Of a stretch of DNA of 64,000 nt, positions 26,153 through 43,179 are shown one piece after another. The stretch comes from Neophaeotheca triangularis (lineage: Eukaryota). The position numbers were made by a program, and so were the translations under genes. The stretch lies in assembly GCA_054600435.1 (NCBI GenBank), contig BAAIJX010000019.1, positions 62,001 through 126,000 of the forward strand. Reading direction: 5' to 3'. Numbering within the stretch: position 1 is the stretch's first letter; every line of letters begins with the position of its first letter. The notes beneath the pieces are model-generated. The model worked only from the letters and a program-made list of their open reading frames with translations, was not told the origin of the DNA and made no database searches.

Positions 26153-26455
26153 TGCGGGAATGTTTCGTGCGGATGCGGAAAAATGTCACGGAACGTGGTC
26201 GACGGGGTGGAGCTTGAGGTAGCATCTGCTGCTGCTGATGCTCTCGGGATGGCTTCAGCATGTGAAAACGACGCACGTGCCACCTTGAACTGAACTCGCT
26301 CGGGTTCCATAAATCCACTTCCCGAGCAGCCTTCAACCTTCAACCTCACGTCTCCTCCTACCGTATTTTAAAAACCAAATTGCTACCCCTGACTAGGCGT
26401 AGGCGTAGCCGTAGCCCTTTGAACTGAAGATCAAGTCAACATCTATCACCATTCA

Positions 26456-29400
26456 ATGGACAAAAATCGGTAGGCCACAAAAGCCGCAGCCTTTTGTATG
26501 CAAGGCAACGGCTACCCACAGCAAAGGAGATCGTCTCGGCAAACGATTTACCTTTGCATGAGCAAGCGTCTAGCTTCAACACTGACGATTTGCTGCTCTT
26601 CCTCCCAACTGACGCCCCCCTACTGTGTCTAGCGACGAGATCGACTAACATCGAGAAAAGGCCAGCTGGAATCTTCTTGAAAGCCCAGGGAATACGCAGG
26701 ATGACGCTTGAGGAAACCCTCCCCCCGGAGGCGGAGCCAGAGTCGAAACCGTTTGACGGCGACGACGATGGGGACGGCGAGTTCGGTCTACCAATCAGCT
26801 CACATGCCGGCATCGAGCAGAGACGTAACCAAAAAGCACTCTTCGACGAATGGCTTATGGACGATGCTGCGCAAGAAGCAGCAAAACCCAGGTCCAAGGA
26901 CGGCACGGTCAAGGAGGCCGCAGATGAAGTCATGTCGATACGCTCTCTCATGTCTAGGCAAACACCTGACAAAATCGTCAAGAACCCACGTGAATATCAG
27001 ATCGAGCTATTTGAGCGCGCCAAGCAACAGAACACGATTGCAGTCCTCGACACTGGATCTGGCAAGACCTTGATAGCTGTCCTCTTGCTTCGCCATACGA
27101 TTGACCAAGAACTCGAGAACCGTGCTGCTGGCATGCCTCCTCGGATATCATTTTTCCTCGTCGATTCAGTCACGCTGGTGTTTCAGCAATTTTCTGTTCT
27201 TGAACACAATCTCGATCACAAAGTGGCCCGGTTTTGTGGCGCAATGGGAGCTGATCTCTGGCATCCTCAAATCTGGAAGCAACACTTCTCCGAAAACAAA
27301 GTCATCGTGTGCACGGCGGATGTGCTGCTACAATGTCTGATGCACAGCTTCATCAGAATCCGGCAGATCAATCTGCTCATCTTCGATGAGGCTCATCACG
27401 CGAAAAAGAACCACTCCTACGCGAGAGTCATCAAAGACTACTATTTGGACGAGCCCGAGAAATCTCTGCGGCCGAGAGTCTTCGGCATGACAGCCAGTCC
27501 AGTCGATGCGAAGACAGATGCGGTGCAGGCGGCACACGAACTGGAGACGTTGCTTCATTCGCGGATTGCCACAACCACTGGTTTAAGTTTCCAAGAAGCG
27601 GTCAAGAGACCGAGCGAGGCAGTCTTGCGCTACGCACCATTGAAAGCACCCTTTGAAACGTCCTTCCTCCGGGACGTCAAGACACGTTGGCCAAACGTCA
27701 TCATATACAAAGATCTCTACGAGCGTTGCGAGTCCATCGCGTCTCATCTCGGCCGCTGGTGTGCTGATCAGTATCTTCTCCGCGCGCTGTCTGAACAGAA
27801 GCTTAGGAAGTTCGTGTCCAGAACGGAGAGGGCCTTCAACTCGCGCAAGATTGCTCGGCCCATCGGAGAGTTGGATGATGCGGTGGCAGAGCTGCAAGAA
27901 GCGTCAAAGTACGTCGAGCAGCAGAGTCAAGAGCGGAGCTTTCAAATGGAGGAGAGTGATTTGAGCTCAAAGGTACAAGAGCTTCGCACTTGGCTGAAAT
28001 GGCAATTTGAACGCCCATCAAACCACAGATGCATCATCTTCGTGGAGAGGAGGCATACTGCCCATCTCCTGAATAAGCTGTTCAACAAGATTGGCACGCA
28101 GCACATGCGATGCGATGCTCTCATCGGTGCCAATCAAGCGGACCTCGACTCGGACAACTTCAGCTTTCGGCAGCAAGTCATGACTTTGATCAAGTTCCGC
28201 AAAGGAGAGACCAACGTTCTTTTCTCGACGTCTGTGGCTGAAGAAGGTCTTGACGTTCCCGACTGCAATCTTGTCGTCCGGTTCGACATGTACAGGACCA
28301 TGATTCAATATGTACAGTCGCGGGGTCGAGCTCGGCACCAGAACAGCAAATTCATCCACATGATTGAGAACGGCAACCCGGTTCATACCGCGCTGTTGCA
28401 CGATGTCCGATTCCAGGAGGCTACCATGCGGCGCTTTTGTCAAGCCTTGCCGGATGACCGCAGGCTTATCGGTAACGAGGACAGTCTCGACGAGCTACTG
28501 ACGAAGGAGAAGAACATGCGGGTCTATATCGAGAAAAGTACAGGCGCCAAGCTTACATACGGTAACTCTCTGGCTTACCTAGCAAACTTTGTCAGCGCGA
28601 TCCCTACGCCTAGTGAAGAAGAGCCAATGCATCCTACCTACGTCGTTTCGTATCAAGGAGCCAAGTATATCGCGGAGGTTATCTTGCCATCTAGCGCGCC
28701 CATCAGATCTGCGATTGGTCGAGTCTGTCAGAAAAAAGCGTTGGCCAAGCGATCCGCAGCTTTCGAGGCCTGCATCGAGTTGCGAAAGGCACAGTATCTC
28801 GACGAGAACCTGATGCCCACTTATCAGAAACGGCTGCCCGCGCTTCGAAACGCTATGCTTGCTGTTGATGACAAGAAGAATACCCAGTATACAATGCGGA
28901 CGAAGCCGAAAATTTGGGCAGAGGGTAGAGCGGGCGAGCAGTCTTTACCGACAAGACTATTCGTCACGGTCATCGATTTCCCAGAGGGTCTCGAGAGGAA
29001 GCACCAGCCGCTCGCACTTCTGACAAGGGACAGGATGCCGGACTATCCTACCTTCTCCCTCTTGCTGAATGATGGTCGTGCCACCGCCGTCTCGACTACA
29101 ACTTTCGAAAAGCCGATTCAGGTCACTGAGGTGCTTCTGAAACAAGTCACCGAGTTCACCTACAGGGTCTATCAGGACGTTTTCAGCAAAAAATACGCGA
29201 AAGAGCCGACCCACGTATCATACTGGATCGCCCCGGCCGTCGCGGCGACAGACGGCAAGGCAAGTGCTCCACACGAAGTGCTCGATCACACCCTAATGGA
29301 GGAGGTCTTGCGGCTGGAAGAATACAAGTGGACCGCCGAAACACCGGAGGAAGACCTAATCAACAAATTCCTGGTTGACAAGTGGGATGGGGCGCGAAAA

Positions 29401-31302
29401 TTCTACAGCACAGGCATAGATCCTAAGCTGACCCAACGGAGCCCCATTCCGGAAGGCGTCGCGAAATCCAAATGGAGCGGTACCATCCTTGACTACAGCG
29501 TCAGCCTGTTCAAGGAGTCGAGAAAGAAAGCGACCTGGGCCGACAACCAGCCGGTGATGATTGCGGAGAAAGTCTTGTTTCGCCGCAACATGCTTGCTCC
29601 ACCGGAAGCAAAGGAAGTAAACCAGCGGACCAAGGCATACCTATGTCCTGACCCGCTGCTCATCTCTGTTCTGCCGCCTGCAGTTGCGGTGAGCTGCTTT
29701 ACCTTCCCGGCCATCATCTACAGACTCGAATCGTACATGATTGCGCAAGAAGCATGCAGCCTCGTTGGCGTCCATTGTATGACCGATGTTGCGCTCGAGG
29801 CGGTCACTCAGGACTCCCAAAACAGCGGAGATCACGGCACCATCGAGCGCATCAACTTTCAACATGGTATGGGCAAGAACTATGAGCGGCTCGAGTTTAT
29901 GGGCGACTGCTTCCTGAAGACGGCCACAACAATCGCCGTTTTCGTGCAAAACCCGGAAGATGACGAGTTTGCATACCATTGTTCCCGCATGGCTATGTTG
30001 TGCAATAAGAACCTCTTCGAGAACGCTTTGGAGATCAAGCTGTACGAATACATCCGGACGATGGCCTTCTCTCGACGCCTGTGGTACCCTGAGGGCCTGA
30101 TGCTGCTCGAGGGCAAAGGCGTCAAACTGAAGGAGGAGCCCAAACTCACTAGCAGTGAGGTAGTGAAGCATCCTCTAGGTCAGAAGACCATTGCCGATGT
30201 GTGCGAGGCCTTGATTGGGGCCGCGTACATTGCGCACAACAACCAAGAAAAGTGGACGCCAGAAACAATGAACGAAGCCGTGCGCGTTGTTACCAAGCTC
30301 GTCAATAACCCCGACCATACTTTCCAGAAGTGGTCCGATTACCGTGCGGCCTACACACTACCAACTTACCAGACTGGCGACGTCTCCGCCTCGCAGCGCG
30401 ATATGGCCGAGAAAGTGGAACTTGAGCATGGCTACAAGTTCAACTACCCCCGCCTCCTGCGCTCCGCCTTTGTGCACCCCTCGCAACCTTTCATTTGGGA
30501 AAAGGTCCCCTCATACCAGCGTCTGGAATTCCTCGGAGATGCTCTGCTCGACATGGCTAGCATCTCCTACCTATTCTACCGCTTTCCGGATAAGGACCCA
30601 CAATGGCTCACAGAGCACAAAATGGCCATGGTCTCGAACAAGTTCCTCGGCTGCGTCTGCGTGACCCTCGGCTTCCACCGTCACCTCCGCTATTCCTCGT
30701 CAATCCTCGAGCACCAAATCCGCGAATATGCCTCCGAACTGCTAGAAGCTAAACGCACAGCGGGCGAAGACGCTCGGGATTACTGGACCACGGTGTCAGA
30801 CCCTCCGAAATGCCTCCCCGACATCGTCGAAGCCTACGCGGGCGCCATCTTCATCGACTCGGACTTTGACTACGGCGTCGTCCAGGACTTCTTCAACCAG
30901 CACATCGTCTACTTCTTCGAGGACATGAGTCTATACGATGCCTTCGCCAACAACCACCCTTGCACACATTTGCACAATTTGCTGCAAACCACCTACGCGT
31001 GCCAGCAGTACCGGCTTTTGGCGAAGGAAATCCCTGCAGACGACCCGGTCAATGGGAAGAGCCTGGTTGTCGCAGCGGTCATGGTCCATAAGACTATCGT
31101 GGCCAGTTCGCGAGGGAAAAGTGGAAGGTATGCGAGACTCAGGGCCGCGCAGCAGGCGAATGAGATGATTGAGGGCTTGGCGCCTTTTGAGTTTCGTGCG
31201 AAGTTTGGATGTGATTGCTCGGGCGAGGGGGCGGTGGATGGGGAGGTGGAGAAAGCGGCCAAGGGACTGGCTGAGGGTATGAGTGTTCTCGGATTGGGGT
31301 AA
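26456..31302 (+). CDS. DCL1: Dicer-like protein 1 (DExH helicase, dimerisation domain, PAZ-like region, two RNase III domains, dsRBD); proposed exons 26456-26469 and 26661-31302, alternative start ATG 26701
   Basis: PREYQ, LDTGSGKT, LIFDEAHH, TSVAEEGLDVPDCN, QSRGRAR; RNase III signatures ERLEFMGDCFL and QRLEFLGDALL. Confidence 0.93.
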
Positions 31303-31889: not shown

Positions 31890-34376
31890 AGTAAACCTCC
31901 ACCATCCTCTCATCTTAGCATAACATCAACATCCCCGAGTAGCTTAGCTATTCAAGCGCCTTTTATCACGCTTCTACTCTTTACCATACCAGCAGACATC
32001 TACACCTACACACTCACTAAACCACCACCAAACGTCGCGTAACTGGAACCACCACGAAACCAACAAGCCCACAACCCACGCGTCCTTTCAACATCCACCA
32101 CAAGCATATACCCTCCCCACAGTCACGAGACCGCCATCATTCGACTAGCCTCGCGCCGGTTGGATTCAGACCACCTGGTCTCGCTCCCGCGTGCAGCAAC
32201 AGTCGCCAACCTACTGCGTCAGCGCCGAGCGACGATTCTCACCAGCCTACGCATACGGGAAACGCGCTGTCGCACAACAAATGCACGCCGGGGGGATGGC
32301 ACTCGGAACTTAACCCTAAGAAGTTTCCTCGGTCTCCTTTTGCTACAAAACAGCAAAAGACGAAAGCCTCGCGGTGCTCTACTTTTCCCAATGAGAGCAA
32401 GCCACCGGCTCCGTGATGAGCTTCCCCAATTCTGACGTGTGGACGCTGGAGCTTGAAAAGGCCCTGGTGAATGCTCTGATGTAGGAGGGGAAGGGAAAGC
32501 GGGGCTGGTTCTGGTCCGGTGCCTATTCAATGGGCAGTAATACAGCGGCCTCATGCGTCGGTTTGGTAAGACCTCTCAGAGAGGCGCGCGTCGAGTGCCG
32601 CTGGCTGGACTTGTGCTTCTGATCATCGAGGGACAGCTTTAGCGGTAGTGGTGTTGGACGTGAGACGGGAGAGAGGGGGTGAGGGGTGTCGGGCAGACCT
32701 AGTTCGGGTCTTGCTCTTAGGGTCTTCAACAAGCTGGTCGGCGGGCGGGGAAGGTGAGGTTGATGCTTTGGAGGTTGCCATGCTGGGTCTCGCGCGTGTT
32801 GGAGCTGAGTATGCGTCGACTTCTGCATCAGCACCTTAAGTGGTGTCTGTTGAGTACCGGCGACCTTGACTTGGTTGCTGGATTGAGAAAACTACAGGCA
32901 GAGCACGACATTATCAGCAATGATCTTGGCCTACAAACAGGCTGCGCGGGTCGGGTTGCTTCATCTCTGGCCTTGAATGCCACACCTGCCAGCACGATGC
33001 ACAGCATCTAGCGGGGTGGTCAAGTCTACCCACAGAAGCAACCCATTCGTGCGGTCGAACAGGCATGTCGTACGCTCCAGCCACCTGTCGTCTCTCTTGT
33101 CCGACGGCTTTGTCACTGGCTACCGGTGCTCGCAGGTGTAGCAAGTCGCCGTAGATCCTCTCATCCCAACCATGGCGCGCGAACCCAGAGCGAACAACAG
33201 CTTCCTCAGCGTCGCCTACCCGACAAACCCGACCTTGTCCCCAGCGAAGACGTCCTGTACACCTCTTTAACCCGCGTATCGGCAGCACGTACGCCAACCA
33301 CTCTCCAACCCATCCACCACTCCAACGGCCCACCATGAAGCCCGCGCTACAGCACCAGCTACCAGCGCGGTTGCAGTCCGCTGCATTGTCCGATCAGCCG
33401 CGTCAATCATCTCCTCATGCTGCAGAGAATGGGTCGATCCGATGAGCGCCGAAATATCCAACAACGCCCAGCCGCCGTCGACTCTTCGTTGACTCAGCAG
33501 CATGGACCCCACGAGCAATTCAGTGGGAAGCAAGCGGTTTTTGCAGATGTGCTTTGTCCGTTTGAAACTGCCTCTCGGAGTTCACATCTCGCTCGCGGCG
33601 CCTTCCGGGCGTCGTGGCTTGGGGTAAGAACGAAGAGATGGAATCAAAGACTGTCTCTGAGGTGGAGTGCTTTCTGCACAAGGAGAGGCGATCTTCCTGC
33701 TCAGCAGGGCTTGGGATGTGGGAGCTTTTGTTGGTGGAGTGGTGCGTACCAAGGAAACGACTGGGTGGTTTAAGTGGTGCTGCGTTAGGTTGTAGGTGGA
33801 AGACGCTAGGTTGCTAAGATTGAGTGCTGGATGAGAGGCGGGATGGAGATGCTGTGTTTACTGTGGCTCTTCGGAAACTCGAGATTGGGCTTGTTGCCTT
33901 TCTAGCGTGTTGAAGTGGTGCTTGAGGGTCTACGGAAGGCATGTTATCGGATTTGACGGGACGTCTTGAGTGGCTTGGACGAGTGGACTCTCAATTCGGC
34001 TGCTTTGGCGGCCGCAGGCCGACGGGCAGTGCCTCGGGGACTCTGGGTAAACAGCTGCAAAGCGCGGGACCTCTCTCGCGTGAGGATCAAAGCTTTGGCT
34101 TGTCTGCGCTGCGCATTTGCCAGTTGATCTGGAGTACTGCTCAGACGCCTGCGGATCCAAGCCAACCTATGAAGAGAACGTGTCCTACTCGCAAGGACGA
34201 GGCGCATCTGCTCTGAATCTGGTGCTGGAAGTGGGCCCAAAAGCTACACAGACGCCGCCGGTGAATTGCAAGCTTGATCGAAAGGGGAAGAGGGATCGCA
34301 TTGAGCGCCAGGGCGCTTTCGCCGCCTTCTCGAATCCTGCAAAGGGGCCGGGTTGGCGGCTATTTTACTTTTTTCT
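31890..34376 (+). ncRNA. TER: Putative telomerase RNA (TER), ~2.5 kb; 5' end approximate
   Basis: No credible ORF; template TAACCCTAA at 32311-32319; nested long-range helices; terminal GCCGCC/GGCGGC stem; U-rich tract, then ATAAGT (34377), GCTAAC (34416) and CAG (34430-34432), matching the 3'-end architecture known for Pezizomycotina telomerase RNAs. Confidence 0.88.
32311..32319 (+). other. Telomerase template UAACCCUAA (specifies TTAGGG)
   Basis: 1.5 copies of the complement of TTAGGG inside the structured non-coding locus. Confidence 0.85.
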
Positions 34377-34432
34377 ATAAGTCTCCCACTCCTCCCAAAA
34401 TGTGGGAAAGCCTCTGCTAACTACCACCGCAG
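34377..34432 (+). other. Terminal non-canonical intron (AUAAGU 5' splice site) defining the TER 3' end
   Basis: ATAAGT...GCTAAC...CAG, 56 nt, similar in size to the short introns of this window. Confidence 0.85.
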
Positions 34433-34459
34433 GACCGCACCCAGCTTTCAGTCACGCAC

Positions 34460-34921
34460 TCAGGCCATTTCCACAGCGGCCCTCCAGCACATTCTCGTAC
34501 ACAGTCCCACGCCCACGAAGTAGGCCGCGCTCCTCAAGAAGCTCCAAGTCTTACTCTCCGTCACAATATAATTGGCAACATACACAAGCCTACTGGCCAT
34601 CCATGCCGCAGCAAAAGTCTGCACCCCCAGGTCGCGTCCAGTCTGCTTTTCCGCCAGCAAACCCGCAATCACGGAGACGTAGAAGAAAGGCATGTTCTCC
34701 ATGCAGTTGCGGTGGCAGGCCTCGGCGCGCTCATACTTGGCGAAGGCGGAGGGCGAAAGGGTTGATTTTGTTCGGCTGGCAGCGCTGCTGCCGTGTGGGT
34801 TCGAATTGTCGAGTTTGGAGATGTCGCCGTTGGTTGCGATGGTCGCGGCGTAGGAGTGGGGGAGCACGGAGAGGATGTAGTAGGCGGGGAGCGAGAGGAG
34901 GGCGTAATTGTAGGACGACAT
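34460..34921 (-). CDS. MAPEG-family small membrane protein
   Basis: 153 aa with several hydrophobic helices; DNSNP, RAEACHRNCMENMP, SRLVY and RSAAYF motifs. Confidence 0.82.
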   Translation of the reverse strand: MSSYNYALLSLPAYYILSVLPHSYAATIATNGDISKLDNSNPHGSSAASRTKSTLSPSAFAKYERAEACHRNCMENMPFFYVSVIAGLLAEKQTGRDLGVQTFAAAWMASRLVYVANYIVTESKTWSFLRSAAYFVGVGLCTRMCWRAAVEMA

Positions 34922-35318
34922 TGTGGGTTTGAGTTGGGTGGGTTGGGGTTCTGGGGGATTGTATCGGGTCGTGTTTGGTTTTGGGAGGTTGTTTGAATAA
35001 GAATAGGAGGTGGGACTTGCACGGTAGTTAGTTAACTATCTATCGCTCTGGGAATTGGAAGTCGCTAACAACGTTGGGTGACGTTGGTCCTCGGCAAAGG
35101 TCCAAATTGGAAGCTTTGGATCGAGCTTGAAACTTTGATTGCCCTCGTTCTTCTCTTCTCTTCTCTTCTCCAATGATAATGGCGAAATCCTGTCAAAATG
35201 AGATAGTCGGAGTCTCTCATCTCTCACCTATCAAGTTTGCTTGGCCCAGCAGGTCTTGTCCAATGATGATCTCCACTCCTTATCCATGAGGTGCAGGTGG
35301 TCAGTCATGTCATGCTGC

Positions 35319-42449: not shown

Positions 42450-43179
42450 GACGCGGGCTTTAAGCTGAGCAAGAGGAATTTGAGCGTGAGAATGGGCAGG
42501 GTTCGAGCATGCTACCCGCCGCGACGCGATTACGAAAGAGAAAAACGACTGCAAGGCGTCCACGGCGTATTCCTTCTATACAGCGACATTCAGTCAGCGA
42601 GTGCCAGCTCTTTCTGCAAAAGGGGCGATGGGCGATACCCACAAGGGCGTTTCGTGTTTTACAATAGTTGCAATAGGCCAAAATCACATCCAACTCACAT
42701 CCACATCCATGACCGTATCCATAAGCACATCTCAACAACTAACACCCAACCAACCCAAACCTAAGCCCAAGACAAGAACTAACCAAACCCAACCAAACCC
42801 ACAACCACTAGCCCCTACTAACCGACCTCCACGCAACCTCATAACCCTAAGAAAACAGCAGACAACCTACCCCCTAAGCCCGGAAAAAAACTACTTTACA
42901 TACATACAGGAATACAAAAATATATAAAAACACACACTAAAATCACATATACACGTCCCATCACATCACGCTACGCCAACTCCACGGCCCGAGCGACTCT
43001 GTCTAAACAAGCTAAGCCAAGGTAGCTACTAAACACCCACCGCCACCATGACTCCTAGGGGCGAGCTGCGTCGAGGCCAGCAGCGCCCGGGATGGGGAGA
43101 AGCGGTGTTGTATATAGTGGGCAAGGAAGCCTGCGATGCGAGCGCCGGGAGAGAGCGGTGATGGCGGGGAGGTTTTTGG

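Follow-up and report, generated by a model that had tools for sequence, protein, structure and literature searches.

A predicted Aspergillus/Neurospora-type 3'-end maturation cassette in a probable telomerase RNA gene of Neophaeotheca triangularis

A 64,000-nucleotide stretch of Neophaeotheca triangularis DNA (GenBank assembly GCA_054600435.1, contig BAAIJX010000019.1, positions 62,001 to 126,000 of the forward strand; hereafter the window) very probably carries the telomerase RNA (TER) of a filamentous ascomycete at approximately 31.95-34.38 kb on its plus strand, with a 3'-end maturation cassette of the type described in Aspergillus and Neurospora at 34303-34432. We place the probability of this reading at roughly 0.88; the source is taken for a filamentous ascomycete on the strength of the TER architecture, matches to the Rfam family RF02462 and short introns with a CTAAC branch. 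A first-pass annotation had proposed a spliceosomal 3'-end cleavage cassette at this site, and both its position at the TER 3' end and the match of each of its elements to the Aspergillus description bear the proposal out (PMC3603654, PMC4299874). What we observe directly is the sequence anatomy of the cassette, its TER context, the homology and conservation of each of its elements among relatives and the covariation of its two hairpins.

Anatomy of the candidate cassette

In 13 Aspergilli, Kuprys et al. (2013) described the TER 3' region as CGGC3-5U7-12, AUAAGU (for A. nidulans, AUACGU) and GCUAACU (PMC3603654), and the 5' splice site consensus is given as AUA(A/C)GU (PMC3603654, PMC4299874). 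When the A. niger cassette was placed in Schizosaccharomyces pombe TER1, it gave mainly the first-step product, with RNAs ending within the Sm-like tract (Kannan et al., 2015; PMC4299874). An A1G change in that setting produced spliced RNA, lowered the cleaved form more than 10-fold, left telomerase activity barely detectable and shortened telomeres; in yeast and human introns, a G-to-A change at intron position 1 blocks the second step (PMC4299874). The first-pass annotation had taken it as established for both Neurospora and Aspergillus that an A at this position permits the first step and prevents exon ligation. This holds for the A. niger cassette in S. pombe (PMC4299874), while spliceosomal cleavage in Neurospora crassa is represented here by passages in citing papers (PMC4993307, PMC10003056, PMC9564094).

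The corresponding elements in the window, all on the plus strand, are as follows; R1 is a covariance model described below.

34303-34318 (+): small penultimate hairpin GAGCGC-CAGG-GCGCUU; folds, and aligns to helix 1 of R1 with zero non-standard pairs
34321-34326 and 34355-34360 (+): stem arms GCCGCC and GGCGGC, from sequence reading
34321-34360 (+): interrupted terminal hairpin of 14 bp, capped by a GCAA tetraloop; folds, and aligns to helices 2 and 3 of R1
34361-34376 (+): U-rich tract TATTTTACTTTTTTCT, from sequence reading; as the U-rich tail UAUUUUACUUUUUUCU, a candidate Sm-like/Lsm-like site in which the mature 3' end is predicted to fall, unpaired in folds
34377-34382 (+): non-canonical 5' splice site AUAAGU (ATAAGT), whose first A is intron position 1; the predicted first-step cut falls between 34376 and 34377
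34384-34389 with 34402-34407 (+): intron-internal 6-bp hairpin UCCCAC/GUGGGA, from folding; lineage-specific or chance
34385-34389 and 34402-34406 (+): CCCAC and GTGGG, inside the 34384-34407 intron hairpin
34416-34422 (+): branch site GCUAACU (branch A, 34420); the same as the Aspergillus consensus (PMC3603654)
34430-34432 (+): 3' splice site CAG, 12 nt past the branch A

Reading of the sequence placed every motif listed by the first-pass annotation where it had been reported, and extended the branch site from GCTAAC to GCTAACT, ending at 34422. The predicted intron is 56 nt long. Upstream of it, the GCCGCC/GGCGGC stem forms the base of the 14-bp interrupted hairpin, which folds at -23.9 kcal/mol (z -3.4), a value equalled by 0 of 500 mononucleotide shuffles. 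The 3' arm of this hairpin, GGCGGC, is the counterpart of the 'CGGC' in the Aspergillus 3' motif, and it is followed by single-stranded UAUUUUACUUUUUUCU directly upstream of ATAAGT, so that the published arrangement of CGGC and a pyrimidine/U tract is found here as well. Folding of the whole region 34270-34440 was uninformative (z -0.45), and the hairpins stand out only when folded individually.

The first-pass annotation had also remarked that the U tract departs from the canonical Sm consensus. That remark is correct, and the departure is typical of the family, since the Aspergillus U tracts are longer and are interrupted by A and C (PMC3603654).

The splice-like motifs might, on the other hand, simply co-occur by chance in a GC-rich intergenic region. 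The pattern ATAAGT-N15-45-CTAAC-N5-30-YAG has one match in the window over both strands against a shuffle expectation of 0.16, yet at least one copy of this bare string appears in 13 of 100 window shuffles, and the string alone is therefore not significant. Against chance stand the single match of R1 (E 6.9e-07, a rough value), the expected distance of the cassette from the TER core and its conservation in all relatives. We consider chance co-occurrence refuted by the R1 match and by that conservation, and its probability virtually negligible; seen in its TER context, the cassette is, on the sequence evidence, real and beyond chance.

A similar search of the window gave 17 GTNNGT...CTAAC...YAG candidates and one AT[AG]AGT candidate, the latter being the cassette itself. 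These counts bear on the statement in the first-pass annotation that every modelled protein-gene intron in the window begins with GT, which was checked in part only: a spliced RNA contig confirms it for one neighbouring intron, at 35016-35069 on the minus strand. This GT..AG intron of 54 nt lies in the 5' untranslated region (UTR), ahead of the start codon of an adjacent MAPEG-family gene, and has an ACTAAC branch 12 nt from its AG.

The telomerase RNA gene upstream

Upstream of the cassette, on the same strand, the window contains the elements expected of a TER gene.

31950-34376 (+): TER gene body of about 2.4 kb; the 5' end is projected only, and the 3' end is the predicted cleavage site
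32311-32319 (+): template TAACCCTAA, 1.5 repeats, specifying TTAGGG; exact match
32490-32645 (+): conserved TER block on the downstream side of the template; blastn identity of 75-87% to many loci, collinear with the other blocks
33515-33692 (+): pseudoknot region including CGGTTTTTG and the TTTGTCCGT strand; RF02462 local match and blastn blocks
34038-34132 (+): three-way junction P6/P6.1 (CR4/5-like), with P6.1 as AAGC-UUUG-GCUU; RF02462 local match and blastn

The template lies approximately 2.06 kb upstream of the cassette. Its sequence, TAACCCTAA, has two matches in the window against 0.17 expected, and two or more copies occurred in 0 of 100 shuffles. The projected 5' end of the gene comes from six related short contigs that start 335-367 nt upstream of their template. 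Two local matches to the Rfam family RF02462 (Telomerase_Asco), both obtained at permissive thresholds, are collinear on the plus strand and upstream of the cassette: the pseudoknot strand at 33534-33655 (model 1285-1381, 21.1 bits, E 8.9e-4) and P6/P6.1 at 34038-34101 (model 1627-1690, 21.9 bits, E 5.1e-4). Blastn identity in the P6/P6.1 region reaches 95%.

The second exact copy of TAACCCTAA, at 42842-42850 (+), falls within a 145-codon stop-to-stop frame (42490-42927) and is probably chance or coding sequence.

The proposed gene occupies a 3.1-kb stretch devoid of long open reading frames (ORFs), bounded by the end of a Dicer-like ORF at 31302 and by the stop codon of the MAPEG gene at 34460. 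The Dicer-like protein, encoded just upstream of the TER gene in a single frame of 1624 codons (26428-31302, plus strand), has helicase, Dicer dimerisation, two RNase III and double-stranded RNA-binding (dsRBD) domains. On the other side, the MAPEG-family gene (PF01124, 59 bits; 153 aa) runs from 34921 to 34460 on the minus strand and is convergent with the TER gene, its stop codon (34460-34462) being separated from the intron CAG by just 27 nt; any TER 3' exon would thus be antisense to it.

Contigs from two metatranscriptome runs of one study (shares 0.11 and 0.06 of sampled words) provided the RNA data. Contigs 95-99% alike to the window cover 32327-32657, 32720-32947 and 33484-33737, together with the MAPEG gene; because these data are contigs, they are uninformative on RNA 3' end, strand and level.

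Conservation among relatives and competing explanations

Metagenome contigs were scanned with a pseudoknot-strand pattern that matches the window as well as the Rfam consensus and does not include the cassette, which yielded 69 loci. The TAACCCTAA 9-mer lies 809-1272 nt upstream of this pseudoknot anchor in 35 of the 69, as compared with 1224 nt in the window. Where at least 1300 nt is available upstream of the anchor, the 9-mer is present in 32 of 36 loci; three of the remaining four have a one-mismatch template at a similar distance, and one (L032) has none. In 52 of the 69 loci, blastn identified blocks collinear with those of the window, near 32490-32645, 33515-33692 and 34043-34132.

Each of the 21 loci reaching 1000 nt or more beyond the anchor has a cassette, at +540 to +818, and in every one the elements follow the same order: hairpins, pyrimidine/U tail, A-first 5' splice site, CTAAC-like branch and AG. 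Four pairs have identical cassettes (L001=L049, L004=L055, L045=L057 and L024=L062), leaving 17 distinct sequences. The A-first hexamer is present in 21 of 21 loci, as ATAAGT in 19, ATACGT in L023 and ATGAGT in L020. Among the distinct cassettes the branch reads CTAAC in 15 (CTAAA in L007, CTAAT in L022) and the 3' splice site reads YAG in 16 (AAG in L020), while the distance from branch A to AG is 9-13 nt in all 18 sequences once the window is included. Intron lengths range from 45 to 58 nt, and the relatives' pyrimidine tails from 8 to 17 nt, ending in U4-10 right before the 5' splice site. The sequence between the motifs varies freely. The strict motif pattern occurs at the expected place in 13 of the 17 distinct cassettes; elsewhere in 127 kb, both strands, it occurs once, as a second ATAAGT 24 nt upstream within the L068 cassette.

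The intron interior does not share in this conservation. The first-pass annotation had included an internal CCCAC/GTGGG hairpin in the cassette, and a hairpin of 6 bp is indeed present (z -2.87 in the window; 2 of 200 shuffles as stable). A comparably stable intron interior was found in only 2 of 17 relatives (L058 and L045), however, and the hairpin was accordingly rejected as a conserved element and is placed outside the conserved cassette.

A variant tail occurs in an Aspergillus-like clade (L004, L022, L024 and L040), where CCCCUCUUUU(U)GGAGG directly precedes AUAAGU; this form is more Sm-like, with a U-run followed by GG, and is predicted to form a small hairpin with the U-run in the loop.

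The upstream hairpins were examined with a covariance model, R1, built from eight cassettes of one clade (alignment A3) with the window excluded, and comprising 132 positions and 18 base pairs in two hairpins. Over both strands of the window, R1 has a single match, at 34297-34438 (+), which is full-length, scores 39.4 bits and contains zero non-standard pairs. Applied to 70 sources, R1 gave 24 matches, of which the window is the best full-length match outside the training clade, followed there by L023 (37.9 bits), L007 (20.2) and L058 (16.5). A MAFFT alignment of 18 cassettes (A1) misaligned the hairpin 5' arms between clades, and alignment A4 was used for covariation instead. In A4, 98.1% of cells are paired and 11 of the 18 pairs change on both sides; these values were reached by 0 of 500 shuffles, and slid controls were 31-57% paired. 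Helix 1 is paired in 97.8% of cells across relatives, and both partners vary in 10 of the 13 pairs of helices 2 and 3.

The curated Rfam family offers a further comparison. Run on 10 of the 17 distinct long loci, RF02462 matched L024 (1212.7 bits) and L004 (676.8 bits) over its full length (1-1858) and L002 locally only (46.4 bits); L017 and L001 gave sub-threshold matches like those of the window, and five loci had no match at E 0.01. The last model position falls at 1972 in L024 and 716 in L004, and the first base of ATAAGT at 1971 and 715, respectively. The model end thus adjoins ATAAGT in both loci, which indicates that the curated family has its 3' end on the base preceding the A-first 5' splice site. 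The model seems to be tuned to Aspergillus-like sequences, and because the window and the L001/L017 clade give only sub-threshold fragments, TERs of this lineage are missed by standard annotation.

These comparisons bear on the possibility that the cassette is an ordinary, fully spliced intron within a two-exon TER whose end would lie beyond it, for instance at a poly(A) site. The set of three splice signals is complete, and with a length of 56 nt and 12 nt from branch to AG the intron matches the genuine one nearby (54 nt and 12 nt). The adenine at position 1, however, is retained in 21 of 21 loci, and such an adenine blocks the second step in yeast, in human introns and in the A. niger cassette (PMC4299874); moreover, the curated family ends exactly before ATAAGT, and the sequence past the AG is the antisense of the MAPEG coding region. 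We regard full splicing as highly improbable.

A second possibility is that the cassette is real and acts as a backstop, the main route being another pathway, for instance termination of Nrd1/Nab3 type or trimming back to the terminal hairpin by an exonuclease, with splicing handling read-through. Saccharomyces cerevisiae TLC1 does end by Nrd1-Nab3-Sen1 termination (PMC4993307, PMC10003056), and three short contigs (L009, L016 and L061) end 12-14 nt short of the point where the 5' splice site is expected, L016 at the final base of the terminal hairpin and L009 three bases beyond it. Where a contig ends says little about where an RNA ends, however; the A-first site, the branch and the AG are kept in 21 of 21 loci while the intervening sequence drifts, and the A. 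niger A1G change, with its more than 10-fold loss of the cleaved form, cripples telomerase (PMC4299874). A backstop role appears quite improbable.

The short contigs deserve a description in their own right. Of 48 loci without a cassette, 9 have less than 300 nt downstream and 6 lack a projectable relative. The other 33 were projected onto a long relative: 14 end 157-539 nt short of the expected 5' splice site, and 19 end 12-74 nt short of it. The latter (L009, L015, L016, L019, L021, L028, L034, L035, L041-L043, L048, L052, L056, L061, L063, L064, L067 and L069) are 1-2.5 kb long, and some of them start 335-367 nt upstream of their template, as if from a mature TER RNA of about 2.3-2.5 kb. 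This pile-up of ends gives a weak hint of assembly from mature RNA, an origin that cannot be distinguished for individual contigs.

Finally, the motifs could belong to the MAPEG gene as part of its 3' UTR or as a polyadenylation signal on the minus strand, where the U tract and ATAAGT read as an A-rich stretch. The MAPEG stop codon does lie close to the CAG, and the convergent neighbour is conserved in 12 loci (L001, L008, L010, L017, L020, L023, L030, L036, L045, L049, L057 and L058), with proteins that are only 36-52% identical. Yet the cassette is kept in six distinct loci that have no downstream MAPEG match (L002, L004=L055, L022, L024=L062, L040 and L068). It is also retained in L007, where MAPEG is further away and, in contrast to the convergent loci, on the same strand as the TER. 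The cassette thus travels with the TER whether MAPEG is missing or reoriented. A MAPEG 3' UTR origin, which these loci largely refute, was rejected as extremely improbable.

Several points weigh against the assignment of this segment as a TER with an Aspergillus/Neurospora-type cassette. At the gathering score of 30 bits Rfam reports nothing over the whole window, where the best scores are 21.9 and 21.1 bits, and even with permissive thresholds it finds no match in 34130-34400, so that the curated model does not directly place the 3' end of this TER. The E-value of R1 is rough, since the model comes from a narrow clade (effective sequence number 1.54) and a shortened calibration, and A4 was fitted to the model structure, so that its covariation is supportive and not independent proof. 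The bare motif string recurs in shuffles at the frequency given above, and the U tail is without the closing G/R of a canonical Sm site (yeast consensus AU5-6GR; PMC3603654). RNA-library contigs leave 33738-34554, including the 3' end, uncovered, a gap that proves nothing either way; that no short contig crosses the 5' splice site is true by construction, since crossing contigs were classed as long. The block to the second step, moreover, comes from the A. niger cassette in a heterologous host and is carried over here by analogy.

Proposed maturation and comparison with known systems

Published work on other species suggests a first-step-only chemistry for the cassette, and likewise the exact mature end and the bound proteins of the following scheme. 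RNA polymerase II would read on into the short 56-nt intron, and the spliceosome would assemble on AUAAGU (34377), GCUAACU (A34420) and CAG (34432) and perform the first transesterification. This step would cut between 34376 and 34377 and release the upstream RNA with a 3' OH, whereas the adenine at intron position 1 would prevent the second step, so that the exons would stay unjoined and the lariat and 3' exon would be discarded. In 2015, Qi and colleagues reportedly found that AUAAGU is by itself enough to block the second step and that this site is kept across Pezizomycotina and early Taphrinomycotina; the block was reportedly demonstrated in N. crassa as well. The released TER would have its U-rich single-stranded tail (34361-34376) right behind the GNRA-capped terminal hairpin (34321-34360); the tail would probably be trimmed by a few bases and then bound by a ring of Sm or Lsm2-8 type, with ring and hairpin together protecting the end. 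The first-pass annotation had expected a mature end at about 34376; the U-tract zone is predicted here as well, with the difference that the end may be trimmed back into the tract and not lie exactly at 34376.

A broader and rather unlikely proposal would extend the conserved unit beyond the Sm-like tract and the AUAAGU intron. In this proposal, the small hairpin, the GNRA-capped hairpin and an oligo-U tail ending in U-OH might form an Lsm2-8/La-type platform instead of a classical Sm site, and TER read-through or termination might be mechanically coupled to MAPEG 3'-end formation. Such coupling would be possible because, throughout one large clade, a convergent MAPEG gene has its stop codon some 20-30 nt beyond the intron and is invariably antisense to the TER 3' exon.

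This mechanism has been published before (2013, 2015), and the present cassette is a further example of it that would not surprise a specialist. What the analysis provides is an annotation of a TER gene and its 3'-end processing signals where Rfam at its gathering threshold reports nothing, and 17 distinct TER 3' ends from environmental sequences, in which selection is seen to act on the A-first 5' splice site, the branch site, the short branch-to-AG distance, the U tail and the two covarying hairpins, but not on the intron interior or the CCCAC/GTGGG hairpin of the window. The two covarying hairpins with their GNRA loop and the conserved convergent MAPEG neighbour are the comparative additions. 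The practical value lies in annotation and in better covariance models for the TERs of Pezizomycotina outside Aspergillus.

Comparison with known systems separates the cassette from that of fission yeast. The 5' splice site of S. pombe TER1 is canonical and begins with G. First-step-only splicing there forms a 3' end beside a U-rich ring-binding site, as is predicted for the window. In S. pombe TER1 the second step is slowed by a strong branch site and a long distance from there to the 3' splice site (Box et al., 2008, via PMC4299874), and the Sm site shares one nucleotide with the 5' splice site (PMC4299874). In the window, by contrast, the 5' splice site is A-first, branch and AG are separated by an ordinary 12 nt, and no Sm site overlaps the splice site. 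Membership of the S. pombe type was rejected on the A-first site, on a branch-to-AG distance that is the same as in the normal neighbouring intron and on the lack of an overlapping Sm site.

The N. crassa TER template is given as 3'-AAUCCCAAU-5' (Qi et al., 2012; PMC3592445) and is identical to the 9-nt template of the window; the RNA is 2049 nt long (Qi et al., 2012; PMC3592445), as against the approximately 2.4 kb projected here, and the two share a vertebrate-like pseudoknot and P6/6.1.

Relative to the Aspergillus type, the TER core of the window has diverged too far for the RF02462 gathering score, its tail has an extra CU between the U6 run and AUAAGU, and the distance from anchor to 5' splice site is 842 nt, as compared with 540-560 nt in the L004/L024 clade. 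The window shares the Aspergillus plan: CGGC, a long pyrimidine/U tract broken by A and C, AUAAGU, GCUAACU and a near AG stand at the 3' end of a TER, in the same layout as in the full-length RF02462 members L024 and L004.

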